Source of the DNA: a virus
Taxonomy: Duplodnaviria; Caudoviricetes
Reading direction: 5' to 3' (one strand)
DNA: 50,596 bases
Virus record (IMG/VR): IMGVR_UViG_3300005663_000063
Span: 1 to 50,596 of that record
Made by a program: the position numbers and the translations under genes. Below the pieces are notes generated by a model. That model was not told where the DNA came from and searched no databases. It worked only from the letters and a program-made list of their open reading frames with translations. Position 1 is the first letter of the stretch, and each line of letters opens with the position of its first letter. Of the stretch, positions 15,336 to 50,596 are shown one piece after another.

Positions 15336-15356
15336 TTACCCCCCTTTATTTTATGG

Positions 15357-16975: not shown

Positions 16976-17737
16976 TTAATCCGCAATGGATTGTTCCCAC
17001 GCAGGTAGTTTCATGTATATCCCTCGTGCAGTCGCACCCCTGTTTGCAACACCTAGATACCAGCCCATCGCCTGGTCGTTGTCCAGTGTGGTATCAAATT
17101 CCTTAGTTACATGCTTACTACCCTGAACAGCATGGAAGGTTGCCCTCACACCAGTTCCTGAACCCCTATCCTGTGTCTCAACACGGAGCCATAACCACTT
17201 ATCAGCAGTCAAAGACATACCCTTCATTCTGAGTTTATCTATGGGTTCAGTGCTATCCACGCCATCGTCTGTCCAGAAGGCGTGCAGTTCATCGTTGGTA
17301 GCATCAAAGTCTTTAACAATGCCTACAAACGAAGCAACCGTGGAAGAAATAGTTGTGGTAGAGATTTCCACTGGTAAGCGAGCACTCCCCGTAAGGTCAT
17401 CATTGAGACCAAAGCACATAGCAAAAGTCCCCACATTGTCGAACTGAATCATGAGTTCGACTGCTTGCTGTCCTACTGACCCGTAGAACATTGTCTGATT
17501 AGAAGTAAGTTCCACTAAATTGTCATCAGTAGCAGCCATTGACCCAGCAAGATGTAATCCCTTACTAGCACTCACGGCTCTTCCGAATGGTGTATCACCT
17601 GTATCCATAGCCTGAATCCACGCAATACCTACGGCATCGGCGGTTCCGCCATCAACACCTGCTATTCCTGTACCGATATTATCGGCAGCAAAAGTTTCTT
17701 CGTATCTTACGATACCTTGTCGGCCTACATTAGCCAT
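16976..17737 (-). CDS. Capsid decoration-like protein, paralog 1
   Basis: Immediately after the capsid gene; paralog of 16201..16965. Confidence 0.65.
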   Translation of the reverse strand: MANVGRQGIVRYEETFAADNIGTGIAGVDGGTADAVGIAWIQAMDTGDTPFGRAVSASKGLHLAGSMAATDDNLVELTSNQTMFYGSVGQQAVELMIQFDNVGTFAMCFGLNDDLTGSARLPVEISTTTISSTVASFVGIVKDFDATNDELHAFWTDDGVDSTEPIDKLRMKGMSLTADKWLWLRVETQDRGSGTGVRATFHAVQGSKHVTKEFDTTLDNDQAMGWYLGVANRGATARGIYMKLPAWEQSIAD

Positions 17738-26643: not shown

Positions 26644-26931
26644 CTAACTATATTGAAACACGTGCCCACATAAACCACAACGGTCTTCTTCATAATAATG
26701 ATACGAGCCAGTAACATTCTTTAGCGGATGTACCTCTCCGCAATCAGGTATAGAATGATGTCCCCCAGAACATAAATCACCCTTTATATAACTATGGAAG
26801 GTATTTACTGCTTTACAGTTGGGACATCTTCTCTCAAACTCTTTCGCCTCAGTGAGTGTAAATGGGCGGTCACAAACAGGACATAACCTCTCGCCGCCAC
26901 ATTTTAAACAAAACCCATCATCATCTCCCAT
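26644..26931 (-). CDS. Multi-CxxC zinc-ribbon protein
   Basis: CLKC, CPVC, CPNC, CGLC; TAATG-coupled to the rSAM stop. Confidence 0.7.
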   Translation of the reverse strand: MGDDDGFCLKCGGERLCPVCDRPFTLTEAKEFERRCPNCKAVNTFHSYIKGDLCSGGHHSIPDCGEVHPLKNVTGSYHYYEEDRCGLCGHVFQYS

Positions 26932-28316: not shown

Positions 28317-28693
28317 CTACTTTTCATCCACGTGCAGTCCTGGACCGAGGGAAAAATTGAAGGGCTTTTTATCATCAATATCTTCCCACCGTATCAACTC
28401 AGGCAAGTATTTCCGTATCTTCCCCATAGCCCCACCTTCTACTCCAAGAGGAGGATAGCCTGCCTGTCTATTACCACAATGAGCACAGGCACGGACAGAA
28501 CACTCAAAATCCGACCTCACGTGGTCGCCAAGGGTGGACATCACCATTCTATAACAATGCCCACCAAGAGCCAAACACTCTTCTGGCTTCAATTTATAAT
28601 CCTCTTTTAATAGAGAATATCTACCTGAATCTGTCCCCCAAGAATATTCATTTTCCTTTATCTCCCACGGATATGCAGGTGGCTCACCTTTCA
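28317..28693 (-). CDS. Cys/His-rich hypothetical protein, paralog of 28..315
   Basis: ECLALGGHCY and RACAHCGNRQAGY; AAGGGGG RBS before MKGEP. Confidence 0.65.
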
Positions 28694-28696
28694 TTC

Positions 28697-30361: not shown

Positions 30362-31097
30362 ATATTGTCTCCCACGAATCAGGTTGGTCGAAATCACTCT
30401 CTAATGTCGTATTCGGATGTCCTATCTCCGCCTCTACAGGATTCACCAGACTTAAATCTACCCCTATGTAATTAGCAAAATGGTAAGCTATCCTGTCGTA
30501 AGTTAAGTCACTATCCCCCGAAACCTGCAATAGACCACCCATTCTATCCCTGCCTATCTTATAAAGTATGTCAGAAACAAAATGGACACTCATCGGGGAC
30601 ATCGACATGTTAGAATAAGGATATATTGTCCTCCCACCTTTTAAATCGGTAATCCATCCTTCAAACAAGGGTACATCATAACCTAAGACCTTCGAAAGTC
30701 TAATTACTGTCACACCCATATCCAGTAAAATCCTTTCTATGCCTGCCTTCTGCCTGCCATATTCAGTTGTTGGACAAACTGCATCATTAACATTGCGAGA
30801 GGCCTTAGAACCATCAAATACCCTCTCGGAAGACAACCACACTACAAAACCTTTTAACTTTTCGGCCAACCTAATAGTACCATCTACATTTATCCTCCTC
30901 GTTTCCTCAGGATATCGCTCACACTTCTCTGTAGACGTCTCGGCAGCACATATATACGCCACATCACTCTCAGGTAAATCCCAATCAGTACCATCAAGGC
31001 TAACAACATCACGACCAAGTATGACGGCATTACCCATCCTCCTTAAATAATAATAAAGATTCCTCCCTATTAAACCATTGCCTATTACTAAGTTCAT
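30324..31097 (-). CDS. RmlD-like NAD(P)-dependent nucleotide-sugar reductase (extended SDR)
   Basis: IGNGLIG, CAAET...CE..PE.T..INV.GT, LSSERVFDG, YGRQK. Confidence 0.88.
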   Translation of the reverse strand: MNLVIGNGLIGRNLYYYLRRMGNAVILGRDVVSLDGTDWDLPESDVAYICAAETSTEKCERYPEETRRINVDGTIRLAEKLKGFVVWLSSERVFDGSKASRNVNDAVCPTTEYGRQKAGIERILLDMGVTVIRLSKVLGYDVPLFEGWITDLKGGRTIYPYSNMSMSPMSVHFVSDILYKIGRDRMGGLLQVSGDSDLTYDRIAYHFANYIGVDLSLVNPVEAEIGHPNTTLESDFDQPDSWETIYGWCRDFSTKAR

Positions 31098-31107
31098 ACC
31101 AATGATT

Positions 31108-31272
31108 CTACGGCCACAACGAATCAACAATACGCCAAAAGCGATTGTTTATCTGGGTATCGTAGAATTTGACTAAATGGTCTATTAATGTGAACTTTCT
31201 CATTATATCCTCCCTTGCTGCAGTTTGCGGTGATTTACCTTGAAGCATTTGCATTATCGTCCTTAACATCAT
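31108..31272 (-). CDS. Hypothetical protein
   Basis: ATGA-coupled to the upstream ORF. Confidence 0.5.
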   Translation of the reverse strand: MMLRTIMQMLQGKSPQTAAREDIMRKFTLIDHLVKFYDTQINNRFWRIVDSLWP

Positions 31273-34874: not shown

Positions 34875-35252
34875 ATGAGAGAGATAAAGTTTAGGGCTTG
34901 GATAAAACCATCATACAAAAGTAAAGGCAAAGGGCAAATGGTTGACTGGGATACAATTTGGTCAACTTGGGATGTCGCAGATTTATTTGGTAAAGTGGGG
35001 ACAATCCCTTTAGAGTGGACAGGACTCCAAGACAAGAACGGCAAGGAGATTTATGAGGGGGATATACTAGACTTTGGTGATTACTCTATCGCTAAATATG
35101 GGAGATGCTTACATATCGTTTATTGGAATGATGAAGATGCTGGCTTTAATTCTAGGGAAGTCGGGTTTCAGAAATTGGCGGGGTTCGGTATAGATGAAAC
35201 AGGTGCAGTCATCGGCAACATCTATGAGAACGAGGAGTTGTTGAATGGATAA
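34875..35252 (+). CDS. YopX family protein
   Basis: MREIKFRAW, TGLQDKNGKEIYEGDIL and VIGNIYEN signature. Confidence 0.92.
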   Translation: MREIKFRAWIKPSYKSKGKGQMVDWDTIWSTWDVADLFGKVGTIPLEWTGLQDKNGKEIYEGDILDFGDYSIAKYGRCLHIVYWNDEDAGFNSREVGFQKLAGFGIDETGAVIGNIYENEELLNG

Positions 35253-39709: not shown

Positions 39710-40597
39710 ATGGATTTAACTAAGGAAGCACTAAGGGCTTGGTGGATACAGACCACAGGTGAGAATCACTATAAGGCAGCCCTTGATGGGGATTTTAAGG
39801 TAAAGGATACTTTCTTTTATGACAAACTGCGTAAGTTAACCTTTGAGCTTGTGGCGGATAAAGTTATAACAAAGGTTCGCACCAAGAAGGATGGGATATA
39901 CCGCCTAGTGGATAAGGCAGATGAGGAGATAATGTGGTGGGAAGGGGAAGGCATAGATGATAGTAAGGTTAATCTCTTATTACCATTTGGATTGCATAAG
40001 GCAGTCTATGTACCACGCCCCGCCCTCATTCTTATATCGGGTGATACAAACGCTGGCAAGACAGCTATCGCCAATCAGATACTAAATATCAACCAAGAGA
40101 AGTTTGATGATATTCTGTTATTAATGACTGAGGGTTTGGATATGGTAAAGGGTAGGATGATGAACGCTATACCGAAATGTCCTATGCCACCCAAGTTCCG
40201 CACCTTCAGGAAGATGAACCACTTTGAGGATGACGTGCTTCCCAACGGGTTAACAGTAGTAGATTATCTAAGACCACCCAACCCTACATCCTTAATGTCT
40301 ATTGGCGAACCCTTAGAAGCAATTGCGGGAGTATTAAATAAGGGTACAGGGATAGCTGTAGTATGCCTTCAGAAGCCACGAGGCGAACGAGGGGAGGCTT
40401 TCGGGGGTATAATCACTCAATGGGACGCCTCTTTGGCTATGAGCATCCATACTACCGATACAAACTTCGTAAGCTATCTAAAACTCAATAAGATTAAGAA
40501 GCCCCTTATGTTGGATAAGGATTTATACAAGCTCAAGATACGGTTTAAAATATCACATGGAATACAACTGACAGAACTGGAGAAGGTTTATGAATAA
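39710..40597 (+). CDS. RecA/DnaB-like P-loop ATPase (putative replicative helicase) with an N-terminal winged-helix-like region
   Basis: Walker A GDTNAGKT, Walker B LTVVDYL, VCLQK; AGGAG RBS before MDLTKE. Confidence 0.75.
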   Translation: MDLTKEALRAWWIQTTGENHYKAALDGDFKVKDTFFYDKLRKLTFELVADKVITKVRTKKDGIYRLVDKADEEIMWWEGEGIDDSKVNLLLPFGLHKAVYVPRPALILISGDTNAGKTAIANQILNINQEKFDDILLLMTEGLDMVKGRMMNAIPKCPMPPKFRTFRKMNHFEDDVLPNGLTVVDYLRPPNPTSLMSIGEPLEAIAGVLNKGTGIAVVCLQKPRGERGEAFGGIITQWDASLAMSIHTTDTNFVSYLKLNKIKKPLMLDKDLYKLKIRFKISHGIQLTELEKVYE

Positions 40598-40621
40598 GAT
40601 AATATATGCTGAAAGGAGGGA

Positions 40622-40900
40622 ATGATGCCTATTGCCATTGTGGAAGAAATAATTATAGCTTTTTGTTCGCTGGTAATGATAACAGCAATTATGGTTGTTA
40701 TCTACTTTGGGCTAAAGGGGCTAAATATAGCTTGCCGATTAGGTCATCACCAACCTAGCCTTAGCGAAATGAGTTATAACTTTGAGACTAGAGAGATAAG
40801 TGTTCATTGTAAGGTCTGTCAGAAGGTAGTATATAAGGTTAAATCTGAAGACCAACTCACCGATAAGCAGTGGCTTGGGTTTAAGCAGATATTTGAATAG
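40622..40900 (+). CDS. Small protein with an N-terminal TM and C..GH / CxxC motif
   Basis: AGGAGG RBS; hydrophobic N-terminus; CRLGHH, CKVC. Confidence 0.65.
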   Translation: MMPIAIVEEIIIAFCSLVMITAIMVVIYFGLKGLNIACRLGHHQPSLSEMSYNFETREISVHCKVCQKVVYKVKSEDQLTDKQWLGFKQIFE

Positions 40901-40923
40901 CGTAGGCAATGAAGTAGAGAGTT

Positions 40924-41262
40924 ATGAAGATAAAGATTGACCCGCTGGATAAGCTAGTAGCCAAATATATTAAGTTAAGGGATAAATGGTGTCAGCGGTG
41001 TAGTGGCACAAGCGGTCTGCAAACTGCTCACTTTCATTCACGGCGGAAGCGGAGTGTGCGATACGATGAGGATAATCTGTGCCTTCTTTGCTTTGGCTGC
41101 CATAGTTACCTTGATGGCAACCCCTTAGAGAAAGTGGAATTCTTTAAGCAGAGACTAGGGGATAGGTTCGACTTCTTGGTAGCTAGGGCTAACAGGCCAG
41201 CCAAGCCAGATAAATCAGCAATCGCTTTATACCTGAAAGAACGAATAAAGGAGATGGAATGA
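40924..41262 (+). CDS. NinG/Rap-like HNH-fold recombination endonuclease
   Basis: LDKLVAKYIKLRD..CQRC, AHFHSR...RYDEDN...LC.GCH. Confidence 0.8.
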   Translation: MKIKIDPLDKLVAKYIKLRDKWCQRCSGTSGLQTAHFHSRRKRSVRYDEDNLCLLCFGCHSYLDGNPLEKVEFFKQRLGDRFDFLVARANRPAKPDKSAIALYLKERIKEME

Positions 41263-41408
41263 AGTATAAAATTACCATGCAAGTATTGATGCTCCTTTGG
41301 GGGATATGCCTAATGACTATACCTGCCTTTGAAGAGATTGGTGGTTATATCTTAGGCACTATCTGGATAGTGGGCAGTATCATTGTTGGTGCTATCCCTA
41401 ATAAATAA
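41259..41408 (+). CDS. Small two-TM protein (not in the ORF track)
   Basis: MKYKITMQVLMLLWGICLMTIPAFEEIGGYILGTIWIVGSIIVGAIPNK; ATGA coupling. Confidence 0.6.
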   Translation: MKYKITMQVLMLLWGICLMTIPAFEEIGGYILGTIWIVGSIIVGAIPNK

Positions 41409-41422
41409 CGGAGATGGAATAG

Positions 41423-42274
41423 ATGGCTGAAGAAGAACTAATACTTAGTGGAGAACCGATATATTATTCTCATACGCTCAACCCTAAATTCAAGGGCTTA
41501 ATCATAGCCCCTATATCTGATGTGCATTACGGCAACCCCCTCTTCTCCAAGAAGCACTTTCTACAGACAGTAAAATACTTAAAGGATACACCGAATGCTT
41601 ATACGCTTTTAAATGGGGATATGTGCGAGTCAACCATTAAGACCTCAAAGGGTGAGATTTTCAAACAAGTCGGCTCTCCGCAAGACCAGAGGGATTGGAT
41701 AATAGACCAACTAGAACCTATCAAAAAGAAGATACTCGGAATGACTATCGGCAACCACGAAATGAGGATTTACAATGAGGTTGGTATAGATATATGTAAA
41801 GACATTGCCAAAGCCCTCGGTGTGCCATACAGGGCGTCTGGTATGCTACTGAAGATAGCCTTCGGGGACTGGAACAGGAGTGTAGATGGGAAACCGTTTG
41901 TCTACTGGGGTTACTTCTCTCATGGATATGGTGGGGCTAGAACTAAGTCGGCTAAAGCAGTGAAAGTTGAGCGAGTAGCCACTTGGATACATGCTGATTT
42001 CTACTGCCTGTCGCATGACCATGTAGTGAATGCTGCCCCTGATATTTACTTATTACCAGACCCTAGAACTCGTGCTGAGAAGGATGCCGATGGTAAGGAA
42101 ACGGGTTTTACTGTGGGTAGACTAACCGCACATAGAAAGATGCTGGTTAAGACCAATGCTTATTTGAAATGGGGTGGCTATGCAGAGATGTTGGGCTTTC
42201 CGCCCAGTGATTTAACTACACCTTTAATCAAACTGTTTGGAACGGGTAAACCAACTGTAAGGGTAGAAGTATAG
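41423..42274 (+). CDS. Calcineurin-like metallophosphoesterase
   Basis: SDVHYG, NGD, GNHE, HG and SHDH motifs. Confidence 0.9.
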   Translation: MAEEELILSGEPIYYSHTLNPKFKGLIIAPISDVHYGNPLFSKKHFLQTVKYLKDTPNAYTLLNGDMCESTIKTSKGEIFKQVGSPQDQRDWIIDQLEPIKKKILGMTIGNHEMRIYNEVGIDICKDIAKALGVPYRASGMLLKIAFGDWNRSVDGKPFVYWGYFSHGYGGARTKSAKAVKVERVATWIHADFYCLSHDHVVNAAPDIYLLPDPRTRAEKDADGKETGFTVGRLTAHRKMLVKTNAYLKWGGYAEMLGFPPSDLTTPLIKLFGTGKPTVRVEV

Positions 42275-42514
42275 ATGAGTTTAGCAGAATGCCCTATCCA
42301 GGATATCTGTCAGAACTTTATTACAGGTGATAATAAGCCACCCAATAATCATGTCCGTACCATTGTGCCATGCAAATCATTCTTGGATATGTCTTGTGAG
42401 GAGAGTGTAAGAATACAAGCTTGGCTTGGGGGTGGTGAGGGAATAAGTTGTAATATTGAAAAAATAGGAAGAATAAAAAAAGAACTTCACAACTCGGATG
42501 TAGATGTGGTATAA
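42275..42514 (+). CDS. Cys-containing hypothetical protein
   Basis: ORF track; abuts the phosphoesterase stop. Confidence 0.55.
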   Translation: MSLAECPIQDICQNFITGDNKPPNNHVRTIVPCKSFLDMSCEESVRIQAWLGGGEGISCNIEKIGRIKKELHNSDVDVV

Positions 42515-42534
42515 TATGAATGGAGGTGATTATT

Positions 42535-43167
42535 ATGCCACAAATAGGTGATACCAAAAGAGCCAGGGAGATAGGAAAGTGGTTTAAGAAAGGCACAGGA
42601 AGTAAGGGGACTAAATATATCTGGTATGCTTGCGAGGATTGCGGTAGGGAGCGCTGGGTAGCAGTAGTGAAAGGTAAACCTAGTTACTTGTTTTGTAGAT
42701 ACTGTGTTCGTAAGGGCAAACGCTTTGACGATGTATTAAGAAAGAAACTTTCTCTATGTAATTCTGGGGCTAATAATAGGCGTTGGAAGGGGGGGCGGAG
42801 TGGAACCACTTCTGGTTACATAATGGTTAAAGTTCATCCTGATGACTTCTTCCTCCCTATGGCAACTAAGGATTGCTATATAATGGAGCATCGCCTTGTT
42901 ATGGCAAAACATCTCAATCGTTGCCTTTTACCGTGGGAGATTGTTCATCACAAGAATGGAATTAGAGATGACAATAGATTGGAGAATTTGGAATTATTAC
43001 CCACGAACAAACAACATGCTCCATCAATGAAATGGCAAGCGGAAATATTAAAACGTGATAATCAGATAATTGAATTGAAAAATGAAATAGCGGAATTACA
43101 ATTATATCTAGGAGAAGAACTTGCTTGCGATATTGAGAAAATAAAGAGAATAAAGGCAGGGAAATAG
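42535..43167 (+). CDS. Free-standing HNH homing endonuclease with an N-terminal Zn ribbon
   Basis: EHRLVMAKHL.R.L..WEIVHHKNGIRDDNRLENL; WKGG; GGAGGTG RBS and TGnTATAAT upstream. Confidence 0.9.
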   Translation: MPQIGDTKRAREIGKWFKKGTGSKGTKYIWYACEDCGRERWVAVVKGKPSYLFCRYCVRKGKRFDDVLRKKLSLCNSGANNRRWKGGRSGTTSGYIMVKVHPDDFFLPMATKDCYIMEHRLVMAKHLNRCLLPWEIVHHKNGIRDDNRLENLELLPTNKQHAPSMKWQAEILKRDNQIIELKNEIAELQLYLGEELACDIEKIKRIKAGK

Positions 43168-43171
43168 AGCT

Positions 43172-43357
43172 ATGAAAAATAACTCAACAGAATGTGATTT
43201 CCTTGACAAGTATAATGTGAATGCTGCGTCAATTGGTAAGGGGTTGGTTACTTTGGAAGATGGGACTGTCTGCCCTGAAGCCGACTTATGCCTTGATTAC
43301 TGTCCTTATAAGAAGTGTGTCTTGATAAAAGGTAAAAAAAAGGGAGGAATTAGATGA
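43172..43357 (+). CDS. Cys-rich hypothetical protein
   Basis: C....CL..CPY.KC. Confidence 0.55.
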   Translation: MKNNSTECDFLDKYNVNAASIGKGLVTLEDGTVCPEADLCLDYCPYKKCVLIKGKKKGGIR

Positions 43358-43671
43358 AAGTTAAGATACCAAGAGAGATTAAGATAGCAGGACACTGGTT
43401 TGCTATTGGATATGAAGAGGGACTCGCTTCTAGGCACCATAAATATGGGTTTGTCAGTACTGATACCCTTGTAATCCATGTAGAACCGACAATTCCCGAT
43501 TCATTGAAATCACAAACCTTACTCCATGAACTTGTGCATACACTGAGCGACCAGTTCATTTGTGCAAATGCCTTCTCAGAAGAAGTGGTGGGGCAAATAG
43601 CAACGGGTATTTGGGTAATGCTTTCAGATTTGGGTATTGAGTTTGACTGGTCAGAGATAAAGGAGGAATGA
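43354..43671 (+). CDS. HExxH zinc metallopeptidase-like phage protein
   Basis: TLLHELVH...E motif; GGAGG RBS. Confidence 0.75.
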   Translation: MKVKIPREIKIAGHWFAIGYEEGLASRHHKYGFVSTDTLVIHVEPTIPDSLKSQTLLHELVHTLSDQFICANAFSEEVVGQIATGIWVMLSDLGIEFDWSEIKEE

Positions 43672-43856
43672 TGACTAGAGAAGAGATAAGAGCAGATAGA
43701 GAGTTAGAGTTAGGTAACTACCAAGAATTCAGTTCAGTAGATGCGCTATTGGGGGACTTACATTCTTGCAGTTACATTTCGTGTCCTCTTTGCGGGTGTG
43801 TATTCTATCCAGAGACGGCGAGTTCCGTCTGTTGTGGGGTAAATAATGCCAACTAG
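43668..43856 (+). CDS. Small Cys-rich protein sharing its N-terminus (TREEIR) with the downstream gene
   Basis: AGGAGG RBS; CPLCG...CC. Confidence 0.55.
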   Translation: MMTREEIRADRELELGNYQEFSSVDALLGDLHSCSYISCPLCGCVFYPETASSVCCGVNNAN

Positions 43857-44139
43857 AGAAGAGATAAGGGAAGGGATAGCTAGAACTTATTTCAGTCATC
43901 GGTTTGCGGGTGATGTTTCCTTTGATGAGGTTAGTGATGAATGCTATGCCTTCGCAGATGTTGATATGGCAAATCTCCACTCTCAAGGTGTAGTAATCAA
44001 GGTGAAGGGGGAGTTGCCTCAGGTTGAGATTACTTACACGGGTTGGCTTACACCCTCTCAAATTACAGAGATAGGTGCTGCTTATCGCAAGGCTTATGCT
44101 GGCTTCGGAGCTTTTGAGCCATTGATAAAGGAGAAGTAA
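43846..44139 (+). CDS. 'TREEIREGI...LHSQGVVIKV' family protein, paralog of 31269..31478
   Basis: Shared motifs. Confidence 0.75.
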   Translation: MPTREEIREGIARTYFSHRFAGDVSFDEVSDECYAFADVDMANLHSQGVVIKVKGELPQVEITYTGWLTPSQITEIGAAYRKAYAGFGAFEPLIKEK

Positions 44140-44348
44140 TGCTCTGGTATCTTTCAGCCTTAGCCTTAATGTCTTACCCAATAGCGGAACTCAGTAGGGT
44201 TATAGTTATAGTGATAGTACGCTATCCCAATATCGCTATTGGAGCAGGGGAAGTTCCTCAGTCCGACTTTGTATGGGAGATTATATTGATGTGGATAGCT
44301 TACATTGTAGGAGCTGCTATACTAGCTTGGAGATTAAACAAAAAATGA
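44139..44348 (+). CDS. Small membrane protein
   Basis: Two hydrophobic segments; coupled to both neighbours. Confidence 0.6.
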   Translation: MLWYLSALALMSYPIAELSRVIVIVIVRYPNIAIGAGEVPQSDFVWEIILMWIAYIVGAAILAWRLNKK

Positions 44349-45709
44349 AACCAGTGTATTTCTTCAATCCGTCCTACGATGAGAGGAATATAAACTTCTA
44401 CAACCTCGGACTGATTAGTATTGCCTCTCATCTAAAAAGGAAGGGTATCCCTGCCTATGTTTATATGAACTACCTAGACGAAAGGCATACCAAGGACAAA
44501 GATTATGACCTTGTGTTGGAAGATGTATTAAAGGAGAACCCACAATATGTAGGGATTTCTTGTATGACAACACAATATATGGGGGCATTGGATTTAACCA
44601 AGAGGATTAAGGGGCTATCTGATGTTCCCGTTGTATGGGGCGGGCATCATGTTAATGCTTATGGGTGCAATGGGGCTGACTTAGGGGTAAGGGGTTGGGG
44701 GGAATTTAATGCAGAGAGGATTTATAATAATGCCCCACTATTTGTAAAGCGTGGAATACCAGCGAACCTTCCCCTAGATTTCTCTACTGTTATCAACTAT
44801 CAACCAGTAGAACGCCTGATGAGAGGCAGGATGGTCAAGCAGGCATCTATAATGACCTCTTATGGGTGTCCATATAAGTGCAGGTTCTGTGTTAATGCAA
44901 TAAAGGATAGCCAAGTTATCTATCGGGATATAAAGGCAGTGGTTCAAGAGATAAAGCAAGTCCTGAGTATGGGTGCTAACTCCATAGCTTTTTATGATGA
45001 GCTGTTCTGGGCAAAGCCTAAAAGGGTGGTTGACATAATAAAAAACCTAAAAGTTGAGGGTTTTAATTTTCCATGGTTGGCACTTGCAAGGATTGATAGT
45101 AGGCTGGAGGACTTAAAATATCTGGCAAGCAACGGTTGTGAGGAGATACACTTTGGAGTGGAGTCAGGCTCTCAGAGAATGATAGATGAGTGTATCAACA
45201 AGAGGATTAAGATAAAGGATGTTATCCCTGTTCTGCAAAGAGTATTGGATGCAGACATTATGCCCAGGGCTTCGTTCATATTTGGTATGCCTGGGGAGAC
45301 AATGGATGATGTATCACAAACCATTCACCTGATAATGGAAATGGCAGAGAGGTTTGGTAATCGGTTCGTGATAAACGCTTTCTTCTTCTATCCTATACCC
45401 AACACTCCTATGACAGACGAGGCGTTTAAAGGATTGAGTGCTCAGGATTGTATTGATGCAGCAAGACTCTCAGTCCATCCCTATAAACTCTTTGAACACT
45501 TTGATGCATATGACTGGTTGCCTGATAAGAAGTTCTTTGCTGAGTGTTGGTATATAGCAAGGGTTATCTCAGAGATATGTGCTCCTTATAAATATTACGA
45601 AGGTTATAAGCCAGAGTTCGGGGGGATGTCAGTATCTGATGGGACTTATAATGAATTGAATAATAGTGAACTAGCAAAGAAATGGCTAGATAAAGTAAGG
45701 GGGTTTTGA
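44345..45709 (+). CDS. B12-binding radical SAM protein (class B methyltransferase-like)
   Basis: LGLISIA, YVGISCMT, VVWGGHH, TSYGCPYKCRFC, GVESGSQR, GMPGET. Confidence 0.92.
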   Translation: MKPVYFFNPSYDERNINFYNLGLISIASHLKRKGIPAYVYMNYLDERHTKDKDYDLVLEDVLKENPQYVGISCMTTQYMGALDLTKRIKGLSDVPVVWGGHHVNAYGCNGADLGVRGWGEFNAERIYNNAPLFVKRGIPANLPLDFSTVINYQPVERLMRGRMVKQASIMTSYGCPYKCRFCVNAIKDSQVIYRDIKAVVQEIKQVLSMGANSIAFYDELFWAKPKRVVDIIKNLKVEGFNFPWLALARIDSRLEDLKYLASNGCEEIHFGVESGSQRMIDECINKRIKIKDVIPVLQRVLDADIMPRASFIFGMPGETMDDVSQTIHLIMEMAERFGNRFVINAFFFYPIPNTPMTDEAFKGLSAQDCIDAARLSVHPYKLFEHFDAYDWLPDKKFFAECWYIARVISEICAPYKYYEGYKPEFGGMSVSDGTYNELNNSELAKKWLDKVRGF

Positions 45710-46074
45710 TGAAGATAGTAAATAAACCTTGGGGATATGAGAAATGGCTACACGAAGGAAAGTATGTTCTCAAAGAGATATTTATTAAGAAAGGATTTAA
45801 GACAAGCCTTCAATACCACAAAAAGAAAACTGAAACAAACTATATCATAAGGGGGAAGGCAAAGCTCCAATGGTCTATAGTCGGTTACGAAATTAAGAAG
45901 AAGGGAGACTACTTCCATGTGAACCCAAATGAGGCTCATAGAGTAGAAGCACTTACTGACCTCCTTATGATTGAGGCATCTACACCAGAAGTGGATGATA
46001 TTGTAAGGCTAGAGGACGACTATGACAGAGGGAATGGGAGGATAGATAGTGAGCACGAAGAAGATAATAAATAA
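45706..46074 (+). CDS. Cupin (mannose-6-phosphate isomerase type II-like)
   Basis: KPWG, SLQYHKKKTE, HRVEA, STPEVDD.VRL.DDY.R. Confidence 0.85.
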   Translation: MMKIVNKPWGYEKWLHEGKYVLKEIFIKKGFKTSLQYHKKKTETNYIIRGKAKLQWSIVGYEIKKKGDYFHVNPNEAHRVEALTDLLMIEASTPEVDDIVRLEDDYDRGNGRIDSEHEEDNK

Positions 46075-46300
46075 AAGGAGGGGGAAAATAACTGATGTTG
46101 AGAAATCTGAAAGGTTAAGGATAAAATGCCTCATTGTATGGGGCATCATAGGCATCTTGATGCTAATTTCATTTGTAGTATTTAATAGCTTTCTTGAGGG
46201 CAAGTCTATGCGTGAATTTCCTGCTAACGTTGCTGGTGCTTTTCTAATGCTTTGGATGCTTACAGGTATTGGATTATCAGGTGGTGGGGGGGGTATGTAA
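46049..46300 (+). CDS. Small two-TM membrane protein
   Basis: Hydrophobic segments; lies between sugar enzymes. Confidence 0.55.
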   Translation: MSTKKIINKRRGKITDVEKSERLRIKCLIVWGIIGILMLISFVVFNSFLEGKSMREFPANVAGAFLMLWMLTGIGLSGGGGGM

Positions 46301-46304
46301 TAAT

Positions 46305-47894
46305 ATGAATAAATTAGCTATTCTTGTAACAGGAACATATAGAGAGATAGACTTCCTGTTGGATGTCTTTCCACAGATAACTAAAGGGATAGACCACGAC
46401 ATTTATGTTGTTTTAAGGCATACCGCTGGAGAGTTAAGTAGGCTTGGGTTAAAGGAACAGGACTTCACCCTTCCGAAAGGTGGGGATAATGTCTTTATGT
46501 GTGAGTTACCCAGTATGGATAAAGATGAAGCCCACTCTCGTTACCTGATACCAGTTGGGCCGACAGATAACGATAGGGAATGTGCTATGCTCAGTATGTT
46601 TCATGGAGTGTTCACTGCCATCTCTATGATGAAAGCCTCTCTTAGAAATTACACCTATGTTATGAAGACACGGACAGATTATCTCCCCCCAATGTCTATA
46701 CCTGAGATGATTGAGGCTCACACAAAGACGGGGAAGATTATCGTTGATGGGTGTGCTAACTGGCACCATCGCTACCCCGATAGGGGCGATATTCATTGGC
46801 AAGGTTCGTTGAATGATATATTTTGCTTTACCACCTATGATGGGTTTCTTAAACTGTGGGATTTTGAGGACGAACTCAGCAAGTATTGGACAGGCATACC
46901 AGAAACGACTCTATTCAGGGTGGCTATGAAAAGGTTTCTGGGTGATGAGATGCAGTCCCCTCGCAAGAACGAGACTTTCCTGAAGAAGTATTTTACTTGG
47001 GATGATAATGATACCAAGCAATCCTTCCACGTTCTAAGAAGAAAAGGGGATGGGTTGCCCAAGATGGGTGAGGCAACCTTTTTCAAGGGGGATGAGGTTG
47101 TTAAATACTTCGTCGATAAAGAGAAGGTTAAGGGTAGAGTAGAACGTGCTATACTATTGAGCGGGTTTGTCCCTGAACCAGTAAAAGTATCGGATAACTT
47201 TTTTACCTACAAGTATGTAGGGGGGAAGTTGCTTTCAGATACGGATGTGGATACCTTTACCGAGTTCCTTGAGTTTATGAAGAGGAATATATGGGTTGGC
47301 AATTACCACAGTATCAGGAAAGCCTGTGAAGAGTTTTACATTACTAAGACAGATGAGCGCATTAAATTATTTAGGGAAAAGACTGGGATTATAGATAAAA
47401 AGGAGGATATTAACGGTGTAGAAGTACCCTCCATAGAAGATACGCTGGAAAACATAGATTTGAAGTGGCTGTGTGATGGGATACCCGCCATCATACACGG
47501 AGACCCACAACCAGAGAATGTGATTGTAACTGAGGATGGGTTTTCTCTACTAGATTGGCGTGAGGACTTTGGGGGACTACCCTATGGTGATGTCTATTAT
47601 GATTTAGCCAAGATTTACCACGCCCTCTGGGTAGCAGGGGAGATAATCCGCCAAGAGAGATACACTATTAAGGAAGACCCCATAGAATATACCATAGATT
47701 TCAAAGATAACCTAATGGAGTTCAAGGATGTGATGGAGAAGTTTATCGCAGATAATGGATATGACCTATACAAAGTTAAAGTCTTATCAGCACTCATTTA
47801 TCTAAACATAGCACCCTTACATCACGAACCTTACAATAAATTCCTTTACTACTTTGGGAAGAAATATCTTTATGAGTTACTGGAGGAGAAATGA
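46305..47894 (+). CDS. Fusion of an N-terminal GT-like domain and a C-terminal APH/choline kinase-like phosphotransferase
   Basis: LAILVTG..R and YVMKTRTDY in the N-half; IHGDPQPEN, LLDWR, GDVYYDLAK in the C-half. Confidence 0.72.
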   Translation: MNKLAILVTGTYREIDFLLDVFPQITKGIDHDIYVVLRHTAGELSRLGLKEQDFTLPKGGDNVFMCELPSMDKDEAHSRYLIPVGPTDNDRECAMLSMFHGVFTAISMMKASLRNYTYVMKTRTDYLPPMSIPEMIEAHTKTGKIIVDGCANWHHRYPDRGDIHWQGSLNDIFCFTTYDGFLKLWDFEDELSKYWTGIPETTLFRVAMKRFLGDEMQSPRKNETFLKKYFTWDDNDTKQSFHVLRRKGDGLPKMGEATFFKGDEVVKYFVDKEKVKGRVERAILLSGFVPEPVKVSDNFFTYKYVGGKLLSDTDVDTFTEFLEFMKRNIWVGNYHSIRKACEEFYITKTDERIKLFREKTGIIDKKEDINGVEVPSIEDTLENIDLKWLCDGIPAIIHGDPQPENVIVTEDGFSLLDWREDFGGLPYGDVYYDLAKIYHALWVAGEIIRQERYTIKEDPIEYTIDFKDNLMEFKDVMEKFIADNGYDLYKVKVLSALIYLNIAPLHHEPYNKFLYYFGKKYLYELLEEK

Positions 47895-48124
47895 GGGAAA
47901 TGAACCATCGGCGTTTAGGAAGGCTTGTGCTAGTTGTTACCTTGATTGGTTTCTTTTGCTGGCTTGGTAATATCTGGGTCAACAAACTAGAACCAGATAT
48001 TACATTAGCGCAGGAGATATTGGGCAGTATTGTTTTTGGTACGACGATAGCATTTGCGACCACCCTTTTGATAAGTGTACTTTACATCCTCTATGATTGG
48101 CTATACTCCAAGGAGGAGAAATGA
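47891..48124 (+). CDS. Small two-TM membrane protein
   Basis: Two hydrophobic helices; ATGA-coupled at both ends. Confidence 0.65.
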   Translation: MREMNHRRLGRLVLVVTLIGFFCWLGNIWVNKLEPDITLAQEILGSIVFGTTIAFATTLLISVLYILYDWLYSKEEK

Positions 48125-48630
48125 AATTGGATTATTCTCAAGAGTTAGCCTCATGTTGTGGAAATGAAACTGAAATGAAAACATTTGTAATAGATGTAGA
48201 TGGTTGTATGACTGATGGGAGGATGTACTACACCGCAGAAGGTAAGCAGATGAAAGCCTTTGGAGCTGATGACCACGATGCGCTGAATATGTTAAAGGAG
48301 TTTATTAAGATACACTTTGTCACTGGCGACCATATAGGATTTGACATTTCTGCAAGGCGTATTGCCACAGATATGGATTTTAATATATGGCTAGTAGAGG
48401 TGGAAAACCGCACCAACTGGATAAAGGAAAATTTTGGCTTATCAAAAACAATCTATATGGGCGATGGCATACTTGACCCACCTATCTTTGAGAAGGTAGG
48501 GTATAGTATCTGTCCTGCTGATGGGTTTTATCTGGCCAGAGAAAAGGCTGACTTTGTAACACAATCAGGGGGAGGACACCGTGCCGTAGCAGAAGCCTGT
48601 ATGCACATTAAGGAGAAGTTCTTTGTATAA
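48121..48630 (+). CDS. KdsC-like HAD sugar-phosphate phosphatase
   Basis: IDVDGCMTDG, K.F...D, YMGDG..D, GG..AVAE. Confidence 0.88.
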   Translation: MKLDYSQELASCCGNETEMKTFVIDVDGCMTDGRMYYTAEGKQMKAFGADDHDALNMLKEFIKIHFVTGDHIGFDISARRIATDMDFNIWLVEVENRTNWIKENFGLSKTIYMGDGILDPPIFEKVGYSICPADGFYLAREKADFVTQSGGGHRAVAEACMHIKEKFFV

Positions 48631-49303
48631 AGTATGTATCCTGACAGCGGGTATGGGAACACGGAATAAGTATGCCAAGGATACTAATAAAGCTTGTCTT
48701 CCCATAGGGGGTAAGCCTGCCATCTCCCGTATGATTGATAAATTCCCAGAAGATGTTGAAATTGTTATCGCAGTTGGGCATAAGGCGGAGTTGGTAATAA
48801 ATGTTGTGATGTCCTCATACCTCGGTAGACCTAACCTAATATATATGCACGTTAATTATCAGGGGGAAGGTAGGGGTCCAGGATATTCGTTACTTCAATG
48901 TAGACCCTTCCTGCAATGCCCGTTTATTTACACTTGTTGCGATACTCTTGTTCTTGAGGATATTCCCGAACCAAAGGTGAACTGGATGGGGGTATCTCTC
49001 GTAACAGAGAAATTACCCTATCTAACCGCTGATGTTGAAGATGGATTGATAAATAAAGTTTATGATAAGGGGGATAAAAATGCTACATATCTAGCTTCTA
49101 TAGGTCTGGTCGGAGTAAGGGACTATAAAGCCTTCTGGGAAGGATTAGCTAACCCGACAATAGTTGAGGGAGAACACCAGGACACTTCGGGAATAAACGC
49201 CCTTATTCCCTTATACCCAGAATACTTTACTTGGTTTGATACAGGAAGTACGGAGGGTTATGAAAATGCAAACAGATACTTTAGTAAACAGATACCTAAA
49301 TGA
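48623..49303 (+). CDS. Sugar-phosphate nucleotidyltransferase
   Basis: ILTAGMGTR......NKACLPI, CCD, WFDTG. Confidence 0.88.
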   Translation: MYKVCILTAGMGTRNKYAKDTNKACLPIGGKPAISRMIDKFPEDVEIVIAVGHKAELVINVVMSSYLGRPNLIYMHVNYQGEGRGPGYSLLQCRPFLQCPFIYTCCDTLVLEDIPEPKVNWMGVSLVTEKLPYLTADVEDGLINKVYDKGDKNATYLASIGLVGVRDYKAFWEGLANPTIVEGEHQDTSGINALIPLYPEYFTWFDTGSTEGYENANRYFSKQIPK

Positions 49304-49898
49304 ACACGTAAGTATAGCACAAGGGTTTCCTGTCCTTGATGTGATTGAATTTTTTGATTTGGTAGAAAACACATATAAGATGAACGGTGAGGTGTTTGTC
49401 TTTGGGAATGGTGGTGGGGCAAGTATAGCTGAACACTTTGCTAGTGACTTAAAGATGCACCCATTTGTATCTGATGACAAGCACAAGCCGACAGATACTC
49501 ATAGGTTGAGGGTTCACTGCCTCAATGAGTCTAATGGGATAATCACACGCATAGGTAATGATATTGGGTACTATCACATCTTTATTGAGCAACTTAAAAA
49601 CTATGACCTTAATGAGCTTGCCTTAGTAGTAGCTTTCTCTGGGAGTGGTAATTCCCTCAATATTATTAAGGCTCTTCAGTATGCAAATGATTGTGATGCC
49701 ATAACTGTCCTTATCGGCGGGCGTGACGGTGGGAAGGCTAAAGACTTAGCTGACCTTTGTATCTTAATCCCAGGCACTTCTAAGTTCCCAGGTCAGGTTG
49801 GAGCTAACGATAACTGTTTCCACATTGAGGACTTTCAGTGTAGTATAACCCATATAGTAACAGGTCTATTAAAGGAGGCAGTAGATGAGGGAAATTGA
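49236..49898 (+). CDS. SIS-domain phosphosugar isomerase, GmhA-like
   Basis: FGNGGGASIAEHFASD, GND.GY..IF, SGSGNS.N, DGGK, IED. Confidence 0.88.
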   Translation: MIQEVRRVMKMQTDTLVNRYLNEHVSIAQGFPVLDVIEFFDLVENTYKMNGEVFVFGNGGGASIAEHFASDLKMHPFVSDDKHKPTDTHRLRVHCLNESNGIITRIGNDIGYYHIFIEQLKNYDLNELALVVAFSGSGNSLNIIKALQYANDCDAITVLIGGRDGGKAKDLADLCILIPGTSKFPGQVGANDNCFHIEDFQCSITHIVTGLLKEAVDEGN

Positions 49899-50538
49899 AT
49901 TAGTTACCCCACTGCACAAGCAGACAAAGAGAAACTATCTAGCTAGAATGAATGACGACAAGGTTCACTGTATGCTCAAGGCTAAAGAGTATGGGTATGA
50001 TTACTGGGATGGGGACCGAAGATACGGATATGGAGGGTATAAATATGATGGAAGATGGAAACCAATCGCTGAAAAACTTATTGAGACATATGGACTTAAG
50101 TTTGGAGACTTGGTTTTGGATGCTGGGTGTGGGAAAGGGCATCTCTTATACGAGCTTCAAGAACTGGGTATGCGAGTTAAAGGGTTTGATATTTCTCACC
50201 ATGCGTTAGTAAACGCCCCCGCAGAAGTTCGGACTTCTGTAGGCATTATGAAGGCACAAGACTATTATCCTTGTCCCGACAAATACTATGATTTAGTAAT
50301 CTCTCTGGGGTGTCTTCATAACTTGCGCATCTTCGACTTAGAAAGAGCTATTAAAGAGATAGAAAGGGTGGGCAAACAGAAGTATATTATGGTGGAGAGT
50401 TGCCGCAACGAACAGGAGTTATTTAATTTGCAATGTTGGGCTTTGACGGCGGAGTCATTCTTTGATAGGGATGAATGGGTATGGTTGTATAAACACTTTG
50501 GATATACAGGGGATTATGTATTTGTTTATTTTGAATAA
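49885..50538 (+). CDS. Class I SAM-dependent methyltransferase
   Basis: DYWDGDRRYGYGGY, VLDAGCGKG, GFDIS, DLVIS..CLHNL. Confidence 0.9.
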   Translation: MREIELVTPLHKQTKRNYLARMNDDKVHCMLKAKEYGYDYWDGDRRYGYGGYKYDGRWKPIAEKLIETYGLKFGDLVLDAGCGKGHLLYELQELGMRVKGFDISHHALVNAPAEVRTSVGIMKAQDYYPCPDKYYDLVISLGCLHNLRIFDLERAIKEIERVGKQKYIMVESCRNEQELFNLQCWALTAESFFDRDEWVWLYKHFGYTGDYVFVYFE

Positions 50539-50596
50539 GGGGGTTTTTGATGAGCGACTTTGAATATTACGGCACAAAATGGGAAGTGGGTAGACA
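50520..50596. repeat. Terminal overlap, identical to 1-77
   Basis: Exact 77-nt match with the window start. Confidence 0.97.

Follow-up and report, generated by a model that had tools for sequence, protein, structure and literature searches.

The window analyzed here is the whole 50,596-nucleotide stretch of the IMG/VR virus record IMGVR_UViG_3300005663_000063, and it carries a long run of genes for sugar-modifying enzymes that an earlier note, made from the letters alone, had interpreted as a phage-encoded, heptose-like nucleotide-sugar pathway. The record has the status of a complete genome with direct terminal repeats: its first 77 bases are identical to its last 77, a hallmark of circular or circularly permuted assemblies, and the unit length is 50,519 bp. 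The genes are arranged in two arms, one on the plus strand from ~32.8 kb through the window end to 4.4 kb and the other on the minus strand from 32.0 kb down to 4.4 kb. The run lies on the plus strand, at 44139-50538 and then at 31-4399, and covers 10,574-10,780 bp, or ~21% of the 50,519-bp unit, in agreement with the one fifth of the genome that had been estimated. Pfam and NCBIfam searches found every domain named in the earlier note on the plus strand and where that note had placed it (Table 1).

The genes of the run are co-directional and also translationally coupled, as had been proposed: starts and stops overlap by 1-4 nucleotides (nt) at 44345, 45709, 47891 and 3168, and Shine-Dalgarno-like motifs (GGAG/GGGGG) precede most starts. 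The methyltransferase gene stops at 50538, and the gene that follows it starts at position 31, within the 77-bp repeat. That the run continues across the origin, another point of the earlier note, is borne out by the 77-base identity, by a 23,707-base Logan contig from a first sediment sample that covers 40000-50596 and continues past the window end, and by a related phage contig (see below) in which the methyltransferase and transketolase genes belong to one run. No internal stops were found in the genes of the run, and the signatures of the enzyme families are intact: CxxxCxxC in the first B12-binding radical S-adenosylmethionine (SAM) enzyme and in the radical SAM/SPASM enzyme, GAGD in the PfkB kinase, DxDGxxTD in the HAD phosphatase, GxGTR in the nucleotidyltransferase, GDG...N in the transketolase, GxGxG in the methyltransferase and HGD..N with DWR in the APH kinase.

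Table 1. Features of the window discussed in the text (GT, glycosyltransferase; ORF, open reading frame; aa, amino acids; ThDP, thiamine diphosphate; values are E-values)
Feature	Position	Strand	Evidence and remarks
Small two-helix membrane ORF, 69 aa, candidate gene	44139-44348	+	opens the run; stop overlaps next start by 4 nt; AAAGGAG upstream
B12-binding radical SAM enzyme 1	44345-45709	+	Pfam B12-binding 2.5e-11, Radical_SAM 1e-17; CPYKCRFC motif
Cupin, phosphomannose-isomerase C-terminal type; putative sugar isomerase or epimerase	45709-46074	+	MannoseP_isomer 7.9e-9; PHROG 7851 1.4e-17
Small membrane ORF, 83 aa	46049-46300	+	GGGAGG before GTG start; GatZ/KbaZ-like gene here in the related contig G001
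Fusion protein, 541 aa	46269-47894	+	GT-A-fold N-terminal half, APH kinase C-terminal half
GT-A-fold domain of the fusion, residues 13-262; putative glycosyl (or phospho-glycosyl) transferase	46305-47054	+	mostly viral family
APH/protein-kinase-like small-molecule kinase domain, putative sugar kinase	47040-47894	+	Pfam APH 6.5e-6
Small membrane ORF, 77 aa	47891-48124	+	ATGA overlap; GGAGGAG upstream
HAD phosphatase, KdsC/YrbI type	48097-48630	+	Pfam Hydrolase_3 7.3e-4, just under cut-off; DVDGCMTDG motif
Putative sugar-1-phosphate nucleotidyltransferase, NTP_transf_3 type	48623-49303	+	Pfam 9.7e-6, just under cut-off; GxGTR motif
SIS-fold ketose-phosphate isomerase, GmhA-like, distinct H-x3-D clade	49236-49898	+	Pfam SIS_2 5.2e-8
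Class I SAM-dependent methyltransferase	49885-50538	+	Methyltransf_11 7.4e-14
Cys-rich ORF, 94 aa	31-315	+	between methyltransferase and transketolase; AAGGGGG before ATG; no Pfam match
Split transketolase, ThDP-binding N-terminal subunit	325-1092	+	Transketolase_N 2.1e-26; NCBIfam transketolase 2.4e-65; GDG...N
Small membrane ORF, 80 aa	1061-1303	+	between transketolase subunits; weak ribosome-binding site
Split transketolase, pyrimidine-binding and C-terminal subunit	1287-2186	+	Transket_pyr 2.8e-29; Transketolase_C 3e-15
PfkB sugar-phosphate kinase, RfaE/HldA type, 332 aa	2173-3171	+	Pfam PfkB 1.9e-15; DTTGAGDAF motif
Radical SAM/SPASM enzyme	3168-4163	+	Radical_SAM 3.2e-19, SPASM 1.3e-5; CNHRCVFC motif
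ORF closing the run, 74 aa	4175-4399	+	AAGGAGG before ATG; no Pfam match
GT-A-fold glycosyltransferase, head-gene block	14352-15335	-	AlphaFold2 model, mean predicted local distance difference test (pLDDT) 78.5
Gly/Ala/Thr-rich protein, 255 aa	15357-16124	-	directly upstream of the head-block GT; partial homologue in G001
Tandem paralogues, 254 and 253 aa	16201-16965 and 16976-17737	-	60% mutual identity; after putative capsid gene
B12-binding radical SAM enzyme 2, putative C-methyltransferase	26931-28316	-	Radical_SAM 6.1e-25, B12-binding 2.5e-20
Cys-rich ORF, 135 aa	28317-28724	-	between large terminase and B12-binding radical SAM enzyme 2
Large terminase	28697-30397	-	PHROG terminase families, best 7e-20
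RmlD-like NDP-sugar (keto)reductase	30324-31130	-	between putative small and large terminase genes; RmlD_sub_bind 4.1e-16
YopX-family protein	34875-35252		early arm
HNH-type endonuclease genes	40924-41262 and 42520-43167	+	HNH 1.5e-4, HNH_3 3.3e-8; early arm, just upstream of the run

A second viral contig of 49,751 bp (G001, also L002) was found by an alignment-based IMG/VR scan; single-sequence pattern scans with the fusion protein and with B12-binding radical SAM enzyme 1 returned no relatives, so that alignment-based scans were needed. Homologues of 34 of the 77 ORFs called in the window are found in G001, in conserved order. All eleven enzyme genes of the run are among them, again in the same order and with 53-75% protein identity; the terminase is 73% identical and the RmlD-like reductase 46%. 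The run is located in the middle of G001, between homologues of the early and late genes of the window, and there it also includes a GatZ/KbaZ-like gene and a third radical SAM gene. Contigs of 48,034, 27,252 and 34,720 bases appear in both the PfkB and the GT homologue lists, suggesting that further relatives exist; a relative of 48,704 bases was also seen among the protein matches. In contigs from a second sediment sample, depth was 288-362 over the cluster and ~294 over the neighboring early genes. The three sequencing runs that contain this sequence are all DNA runs (no RNA run was listed, which has no bearing on expression) and all belong to one marine-sediment study, which may be the source of the record and hence does not count as independent support. 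At position 50519, contigs from both sediment samples read A and the record reads T; because this is the last base before the 77-bp repeat, the T is probably an assembly-end artefact.

Four small ORFs (69-83 aa, with two hydrophobic helices each) are wedged among the enzymes of the run, three of them with a good Shine-Dalgarno motif. In G001 no homologue of any of the four was found; the genes on either side of them abut or overlap there, and the two transketolase subunit genes overlap directly. The Cys-rich ORFs at 31-315 and 28317-28724 are paralogues (36% identity over 64 aa), each adjoining pathway genes, and their products could be zinc-ribbon or electron-transfer helpers. A third Cys-rich ORF is found at 26644-26955, after the gene for B12-binding radical SAM enzyme 2. 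All three are absent from G001, in which the third radical SAM gene holds the 31-315 position. The possibility that the radical SAM enzymes mature these small proteins as ribosomally synthesized and post-translationally modified peptides was rejected, the ORFs being absent from G001 and the enzymes conserved.

For three of the four core steps expected of such a pathway (isomerase, PfkB kinase and nucleotidyltransferase), heptose-pathway enzymes are the closest relatives of solved structure. The top 13 PDB matches of the SIS isomerase are all phosphoheptose isomerases (E 1.2e-14 to 2.5e-9), and the best solved match of the PfkB kinase is HldA (4e84, E 7e-9, residues 19-312). The phage kinase is devoid of the HIGH-type nucleotidyltransferase domain (PF01467) of its bacterial homologues, and the gene of the C-terminal transketolase subunit abuts its start. 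The best 120 of thousands of PfkB homologues are mostly proteins of ~511 aa with PF01467 in front of PF00294, which we take to be the reverse of the HldE domain order. Over its whole length, the nucleotidyltransferase is 47% identical to the N-terminal half of a bifunctional nucleotidyltransferase-kinase (P0125, E 1e-70) and 38% identical to P0129; its best PDB match is 6jq8 (2e-4), a "6-deoxy-D-mannoheptose pathway protein" of the heptose-1-phosphate guanylyltransferase type. The HAD phosphatase matches the NCBIfam models for KdsC-phosphatase (2.7e-20, 72.9 bits against a cut-off of 106.95) and KDN-9-P phosphatase (3.6e-15), and KdsC-family enzymes remove the terminal phosphate from C8/C9 sugar acids. 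It is 58% identical to its G001 counterpart, and its true start is probably downstream of 48097. The N-terminal transketolase subunit is 48-53% identical to subunits encoded in bacterial loci.

The 541-aa fusion protein, whose N-terminal half the earlier note had called GT-like, gave blank or insignificant results in a PDB sequence search, and its N-terminal domain has no Pfam match. A GT-A fold for this half was nevertheless predicted from structure modeling: the AlphaFold2 model (pLDDT 79.3, predicted TM-score 0.82) aligned best in the VIA comparison with BoGT6a (Z 12.7, 3.7 Å, 186 of 231 residues), the top 50 rows being all glycosyltransferases, and Foldseek matches in the PDB were GT6, GT8, GT31 and GfsA proteins (E 3e-6 to 6e-5, TM-scores 0.33-0.46). 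Matches in BFVD (E down to 1.5e-9) were uncharacterized proteins of Catovirus, Tupanvirus and the cyanophages S-PRM1 and S-SKS1, and a DUF7796 protein, and the nearest ESM Atlas clusters are all viral. The motifs GTYRE, TRTDY and WQGS are conserved in this domain. The kinase half has 1391 relatives at E<=1e-3 in a representative library; HGD..N and DWR are invariant in the alignment and a profile search matched APH(2'') structures at 7e-5. In six of the seven long relatives scanned, the kinase is fused behind an NTP_transf_3 domain, P0198 having an additional GatZ/KbaZ-like domain. The phage kinase domain matches the C-terminal half of P0125 at 47% identity, the same value as for the nucleotidyltransferase and the N-terminal half, and we conclude that a bifunctional nucleotidyltransferase-kinase was split in this lineage, its kinase being fused to a viral GT-A domain. 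A 269-aa family found in 39 of 79 viral cassette loci (described below) gave an hhalign probability of 13.6% (E 0.002) against this GT-A domain, with weak hmmsearch scores of 12-15 bits.

Three more genes assigned to the pathway lie in the late operon on the minus strand, outside the region delimited by the earlier note. The first encodes a second predicted GT-A-fold transferase, for which the best 50 Foldseek rows are all GT-A-fold proteins, nearly all of them named glycosyltransferases. VIA matches include LH3 (Z 16.1, 2.9 Å, 174 residues), GLT25D1 (15.0), Mnn9 (14.9), Mimivirus R699 (14.7), and TarP and STIV A197 (14.2 each). It has 28 homologues, two of which are named glycosyltransferase by UniRef, and it is 70% identical to its G001 counterpart; no Pfam GT2 match in six frames and no significant PDB sequence match were found. 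The acidic residues of TRTDY in the fusion protein and of ENDA in this transferase are invariant in the alignments and are candidates for the acidic (DxD-like) motif that follows strand 4 in the GT-A fold. The surrounding block is read as a probable head block from its gene order (a coiled-coil 252-aa protein, a 292-aa putative capsid protein and the paralogue pair) and its synteny with G001; a PDB sequence search with the 292-aa protein was blank or insignificant. The Gly/Ala/Thr-rich protein encoded directly upstream of this transferase is, speculatively, a candidate glycan acceptor.

The other two late genes, for an RmlD-like reductase and for B12-binding radical SAM enzyme 2, flank the large terminase gene. 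The reductase is the sole short-chain dehydrogenase/reductase (SDR) of the genome, being the only Epimerase-family match in six frames, and no SDR of the 4,6-dehydratase type was found. Its counterpart occupies the same position in G001, and it is 26-33% identical to genes in the bacterial loci L012, L045, L011 and L060. The genome has exactly three radical SAM genes. Both B12-binding enzymes combine an N-terminal B12-binding domain with a radical SAM core. Enzyme 1 best matches the PhpK family in NCBIfam (1.2e-33), followed by AprD4 (1.6e-21), all far below the cut-offs, and its best PDB match is AprD4 (6fd2, E 2.6e-16), over the radical SAM core (residues 191-376); it may equally be an AprD4-like dehydratase or a class-B methylase. 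Its frame is open from 44273, the start at 44345 agrees with the G001 alignment, and it is 71% identical to its G001 counterpart. A phosphonate pathway was rejected, the PhpK-like score being partial and no phosphoenolpyruvate mutase being seen. Over its full length, enzyme 2 is 37-38% identical (311-341 bits) to proteins of the bacterial loci L050, L061 and L060, compared to 25-28% for enzyme 1, and is the orthologue of the B12-binding enzyme of these bacterial cassettes; it is 66% identical to the protein encoded at the same position in G001. The third enzyme, of the radical SAM/SPASM type, has weak PDB matches to viperin-like enzymes and to BlsE, is 75% identical to its G001 counterpart, and has orthologues (35-39% identical) beside PfkB or SIS genes in 12 bacterial or metagenome loci; epimerization, dehydrogenation and C-C or C-O tailoring are its putative chemistries. 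The methyltransferase of the run is 48-68% identical to methyltransferases within bacterial PfkB/transketolase loci.

The search for the same gene set in other phages and in bacterial loci, which the earlier note had proposed, found it in G001 and found part of it in bacterial glycan loci. The genes fall into two modules. Module A comprises the PfkB kinase, the SIS isomerase, the radical SAM/SPASM enzyme, the transketolase subunits, the methyltransferase, B12-binding radical SAM enzyme 2 and the RmlD-like reductase. The cupin, the nucleotidyltransferase and the APH kinase make up Module B, to which the GatZ-like gene is added in G001. Module A scans gave 32 loci from species genomes and 58 from metagenomes, and the window proteins were searched against 93 loci other than G001 (E<=1e-8). 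PfkB was found in 49 of these loci, the N- and C-terminal transketolase subunits in 20 and 18, B12-binding radical SAM enzyme 2 in 14, the radical SAM/SPASM enzyme in 12, the methyltransferase in 11, SIS in 10 and the RmlD-like gene in 4. Five to seven Module A genes stand side by side in L046, L058, L060 and L062, and the core of the module occurs in Bradyrhizobium, Elusimicrobia, Nitrospinota, Microcoleus (cyanobacterial) and human-gut metagenome loci. Judging from their gene content, L007 and L060 are glycan-type loci: L007 (Bradyrhizobium sacchari) also holds SDR epimerase/dehydratases, two DegT aminotransferases and an APH kinase, and L060 also holds a TagF-like gene, two IspD-like cytidylyltransferases, a HAD protein (Hydrolase_like/PNK3P), a second radical SAM/SPASM gene and a GDP-mannose-dehydratase-like SDR, with the RmlD-like reductase gene beside its methyltransferase gene.

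Module B has a different distribution. An IMG/VR scan with the kinase alignment gave at least 599 pattern matches, at least 336 of which encode relatives, and 80 loci were kept. Counts were made on the 79 that exclude G001 (L102-L180; contigs of 4-336 kb, with the kinase at ~8001 in most). The nucleotidyltransferase is directly before the kinase or fused to it in 78 of them, the cupin and a GatZ/KbaZ-like gene are present in 68 each, HAD in 7, each transketolase subunit in 6, SIS in 5 and the GT-A domain of the fusion in none. GatZ-like and transketolase genes never occur together in these loci (transketolase only in 6, GatZ only in 68, neither in 5; Fisher p 1.7e-6), which suggests that the GatZ-like enzyme and the transketolase are two interchangeable supply routes for a sugar phosphate, the latter together with SIS, all five SIS matches being in transketolase loci. 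The kinase was found in a single one of 50,697 GenBank phage records, an unannotated marine single-cell virus. A giant-virus origin of the large cassette-bearing contigs was rejected: the capsid protein of nucleocytoplasmic large DNA viruses was found in none of five (the control was also negative), and the T4-type Gp23 capsid protein in four of the five tested. Searches with the two ORFs flanking the cassette of L111 gave no match or one trivial match.

In five genomes with Module A, no convincing P0125-like gene was found, with two weak partial matches (E 4e-7 and 6.5e-6), so that Modules A and B appear to be independent in bacteria and combined in this phage lineage. The cluster is a mosaic, Module A coming from bacterial glycan loci and Module B being common in uncultured phages. 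Neither Module A nor the viral cassette nor DUF7796 was found described in the full-text literature searched. A further heptose-like set was seen in L003 (IMGVR_UViG_3300046798_000030), a viral contig of 38.7 kb, at 7373-15461: SIS, a transaldolase, two extended SDRs, PfkB (39% identical), a short SDR, a UDP-glucose-dehydrogenase-like piece, a split acetolactate-synthase-type ThDP enzyme that may be branch-forming and a methyltransferase-like gene.

Altogether, we think it probable that this phage carries a complete and self-contained glycosylation system, made of the run and of the three late-operon genes (~13.8 kb, ~27% of the genome). A nucleotide-sugar product is well supported; its identity, the order of the steps and the target of the sugar are proposals from gene families and gene context. 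In the pathway that we propose, the split transketolase would supply or extend a ketose phosphate (sedoheptulose-7-phosphate or a relative), which the GmhA-like isomerase of the H-x3-D clade, the cupin or both would convert into an aldose phosphate. The RfaE-like PfkB kinase would then phosphorylate C-1, with the APH-type kinase as a second or salvage kinase, the KdsC-like phosphatase would remove the terminal phosphate and the NTP_transf_3 enzyme would generate the nucleoside diphosphate (NDP)-sugar. Tailoring would include deoxygenation by AprD4-like B12-binding radical SAM enzyme 1 and the RmlD-like reductase, a role given to this pair because no 4,6-dehydratase-type SDR was found, C-methylation by B12-binding radical SAM enzyme 2, O-methylation by the SAM-dependent methyltransferase and a radical step by the radical SAM/SPASM enzyme, before the product is attached by the two GT-A-fold transferases. 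A role of the transketolase in precursor supply is drawn from its alternation with GatZ in phages. Bacteria with the glycan loci already possess a housekeeping transketolase, so that the tight conservation of the split enzyme in these loci speaks for a dedicated reaction; by analogy with the transaldolase of the lincosamide octose route, it may instead build a longer ketose. A Kdo-type pathway was rejected, since the isomerase resembles GmhA and not KdsD and a KdsA-like gene was not seen.

Several observations weigh against this interpretation, and first of all against heptose in the strict sense. No enzyme reaches the cut-off of a curated heptose equivalog, scores being 3-4 fold below, so that all substrate assignments are made by analogy: the isomerase scores 69.4 bits against the gmhA model TIGR00441 of NCBIfam (E 3.4e-19, cut-off 209.45) and 48-65 bits against other GmhA models (cut-offs 265-320), and the PfkB kinase scores 87.3 bits against rfaE_dom_I (E 1e-24, cut-off 345). 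The isomerase reads HFASD where the GmhA structure 5i01 reads HFAAE, and a motif scan found Asp at the Glu position in 20 of 20 cassette-linked SIS copies, while the C-terminal catalytic His could not be placed in the alignment; we take the replaced Glu of the His-x3-Glu motif to be a catalytic residue of the active site. The phosphatase matches HAD-SF-IIIA, the GmhB subfamily, at 2e-4 only and is not GmhB-like. The cluster also encodes two kinases and a single nucleotidyltransferase. C-1 may be the site of action of the APH kinase, which has to work there in viral cassettes that have no PfkB, and another position that of PfkB, or the reverse; given also that the modules do not co-occur in bacteria, the cluster may yield two products or, in place of a single NDP-sugar, a phospho-sugar. 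The TM-scores of the GT-A fold matches are modest (0.33-0.46), the best VIA match of the head-block transferase falls in the range of the non-catalytic accessory domain of LH3, and the pathway and its product are predicted from genes. Thus, of the heptose-like pathway that had been claimed, the logic of an isomerase, an anomeric kinase, a phosphatase and a nucleotidyltransferase acting on a tailored higher-carbon sugar stands. The isomerase and the PfkB kinase do have GmhA and HldA as nearest solved relatives, and a HAD phosphatase is present. The identity with heptose does not stand, because the equivalog cut-offs are missed, the Glu is replaced, the phosphatase is KdsC-like and the HIGH domain is absent. 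The product is best described as a higher-carbon sugar resembling heptose; the analogy fixes neither its chain length nor its configuration, an octose or another ketose-derived sugar being equally possible.

The earlier note had offered the virion, the host surface and phage DNA as targets, the first two of which are retained here. We tentatively favor a protein of the virion head over the host surface, with a confidence that falls short of even: one GT gene lies in the head-gene block beside the gene for the Gly/Ala/Thr-rich protein, two tailoring genes lie around the terminase gene and the arrangement is conserved in G001. The same pathway might instead serve to decorate an envelope glycan of the host during infection (lipopolysaccharide (LPS), capsule, S-layer or teichoic-type), which would block superinfection or stop progeny from sticking to the debris of lysed cells, as proposed for the "LPS" clusters of cyanophages. 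We consider this unlikely, while it is the alternative that survives best. The main run shares the early/middle strand and its direction with the early genes and includes the four small membrane ORFs (which are absent from G001), features that fit an envelope role equally well and thus count against a virion target. Module A also derives from bacterial glycan loci, and clusters with SDRs, cupins, PfkB, HIGH nucleotidyltransferases and GTs in jumbo cyanophages have been read in this way (PMC7824862). Against it stand the GT gene and the two tailoring genes in the late structural operon, and the lack of any flippase, polymerase, Gtr-type or polyprenyl-phosphate transferase among the ORFs scanned, a part of those of the genome. 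Lasting, lysogenic seroconversion is in addition unlikely, since six-frame family searches found no tyrosine or serine recombinase (integrase or resolvase) while controls matched.

That the product is instead soluble and acts as a signal, an inhibitor or a counter-defense agent (for instance a modified sugar nucleotide, or a small metabolite resembling an aminoglycoside or a nucleoside) is improbable. The idea comes from the radical SAM relatives AprD4, BlsE and viperin-like enzymes, which act in antibiotic or antiviral small-molecule pathways, from the aminoglycoside phosphotransferases that are the nearest solved kinases and from a PfkB kinase separated from its usual nucleotidyltransferase partner. 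It fits poorly with two GT-A-fold transferases conserved together with the pathway, with bacterial counterparts that lie in glycan loci and not in typical secondary-metabolite clusters, and with a phage in which no aminotransferase, cyclase or exporter was found. Hypermodification of phage DNA against restriction, like the glucosyl- or arabinosyl-hydroxymethyl bases, is more improbable still. Some viruses are known to encode GTs that attach diverse glycans to DNA (Pyle et al. 2024, as cited in PMC12619734), two pathway genes flank the terminase gene and the head-block GT has a basic disordered tail. This tail is however not conserved among homologues, no polymerase or nucleotide-metabolism gene was found among the 39 window ORFs scanned with Pfam, and the thymidylate-synthase-family hydroxymethylase (PF00303) gave no match in six frames at E<=0.1, the control being found in 10 of 14 genomes; this last result in particular makes DNA an unlikely target. 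Finally, although the closest named relatives are bacterial and the record is a metagenome assembly, the idea that the run is host DNA misassembled onto a phage or a decaying, functionless passenger is effectively refuted, because the independent contig G001 has the run in an identical arrangement and flanked by the same phage genes, a single contig crosses the junction, over which depth is uniform, and the genes have no internal stops, intact catalytic motifs and a protein identity equal to that of the terminase, so that neither the chimeric join to host DNA nor the degraded catalytic residues that the earlier note had named as counter-evidence was seen.

Returning to the virion target, a wider reading would join four propositions, and we think it rather unlikely that all of them hold together: that the head is coated with an undescribed C-methylated, deoxygenated heptose or octose made by radical SAM enzymes; that the H-x3-D isomerase, the split transketolase, the radical SAM/SPASM enzyme, the B12-binding radical SAM enzyme and the methyltransferase form an uncharacterized pathway shared with diverse environmental bacteria; that the cupin/nucleotidyltransferase-kinase/GatZ-like cassette, also present in T4-like phages, is a major unrecognized route to nucleotide sugars in phages; and that the GatZ-like aldolase/epimerase and the transketolase with SIS are interchangeable precursor suppliers.

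The phage has no close relative among the 50,697 GenBank phage records: a DNA search with the cluster gave no match, and a protein search with a 609-aa late protein gave no match or one trivial match. The minus-strand arm carries, besides the large terminase gene and a DUF5681 protein gene that probably encodes the small terminase, a long late-gene set mostly without Pfam or PHROG family; among ten large late or early proteins, seven have no PHROG family and nine no Pfam family. No tRNA genes were found in the genome. The tandem paralogues of the head block correspond to one copy in G001, which is 51-52% identical to both. Named bacterial sources of homologues are scattered over Nitrospirae, Rokubacteria, Brocadiales, Chloroflexota and Elusimicrobia.

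Most of the known glycan pathways of phages come from very large cyanophages and giant viruses, and most of the proven cases of virion glycosylation from mycobacteriophages. That a small phage spends ~27% of its genome on its own precursor means that the sugar is probably one that the host cannot supply, and three radical SAM enzymes with a dedicated split transketolase point to a sugar chemistry for which no characterized counterpart was found in the full-text literature searched. Since the core of Module A recurs in bacterial loci, solving the phage pathway would annotate many bacterial glycan loci. The cupin/nucleotidyltransferase-kinase/GatZ-like cassette, with at least 336 IMG/VR stretches and a near absence from sequenced isolates, represents a blind spot in phage auxiliary metabolism. 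All the pathway genes are short and intact, which makes the pathway directly testable.

NDP-heptose synthesis uses GmhA, HldE or HldA/HldC, and GmhB, or HddA/HddC for the GDP-alpha-heptose route. The phage pathway would share with it the logic of a ketose-phosphate isomerase, an anomeric kinase, a phosphatase and a nucleotidyltransferase; it differs by an NTP_transf_3-type nucleotidyltransferase from another bifunctional family and a KdsC-type phosphatase, and by the addition of an APH kinase, a dedicated split transketolase and three radical SAM enzymes. In the lincosamide GDP-octose branch (LmbR, LmbN, LmbP, LmbK and LmbO), the carbon-transfer enzyme is a transaldolase, and the higher ketose phosphate is isomerized, phosphorylated at C-1, dephosphorylated and nucleotidylated. 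A dedicated carbon-transfer enzyme followed by the same sequence of steps would thus be common to both, whereas the lincosamide route belongs to a bacterial antibiotic cluster, uses a transaldolase instead of a split transketolase and has no radical SAM tailoring at this stage. AprD4/AprD3, which we take to carry out the radical deoxygenation of apramycin biosynthesis with AprD4 as a radical dehydratase, also pair a B12-domain radical SAM enzyme of the dehydratase type with an NAD(P)H reductase, a combination that could explain deoxygenation without a 4,6-dehydratase in the phage; the match is however limited to the radical SAM core, PhpK-type methylases score higher and the phage genes for B12-binding radical SAM enzyme 1 and the reductase are not adjacent.

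Among phages, mycobacteriophages reportedly use host nucleotide sugars and encode GTs and some methyltransferases, with no full precursor pathway. Their glycans are reported on capsid and tail-tube subunits, with GT genes near structural genes (Freeman et al. 2023, as cited in PMC12619734). A GT gene by structural genes is shared by the phage studied here, for which the relation comes from gene position. The sugar clusters of jumbo or T4-like cyanophages of the P-SSM2 type include PfkB, cupins, nucleotidyltransferases, methyltransferases and GTs, and are built around SDR epimerase/dehydratases and HIGH-type nucleotidyltransferases in genomes over 170-250 kb, according to the section consulted of Iyer et al. 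2021 (PMC7824862). Like them, this phage clusters a sugar kinase, a nucleotidyltransferase and tailoring enzymes with at least one GT; unlike them, as far as that section describes, it has radical SAM and transketolase genes, and it devotes ~27% of a 50-kb genome to the system with one SDR. The earlier note's view that such a pathway is unusual for a 50-kb phage is thus fair, with the qualification that clusters with PfkB, cupin, nucleotidyltransferases and GTs are known in jumbo cyanophages and that phage-encoded sugar pathways and GTs as such are not new. New in this case are the large share of the genome taken up by the system, the presence of three radical SAM enzymes with a split transketolase, the H-x3-D isomerase clade, the predicted kinase-GT-A fusion, and the joining of a bacterial glycan cassette to one from phages that is essentially unsampled in culture and common in metagenomes.

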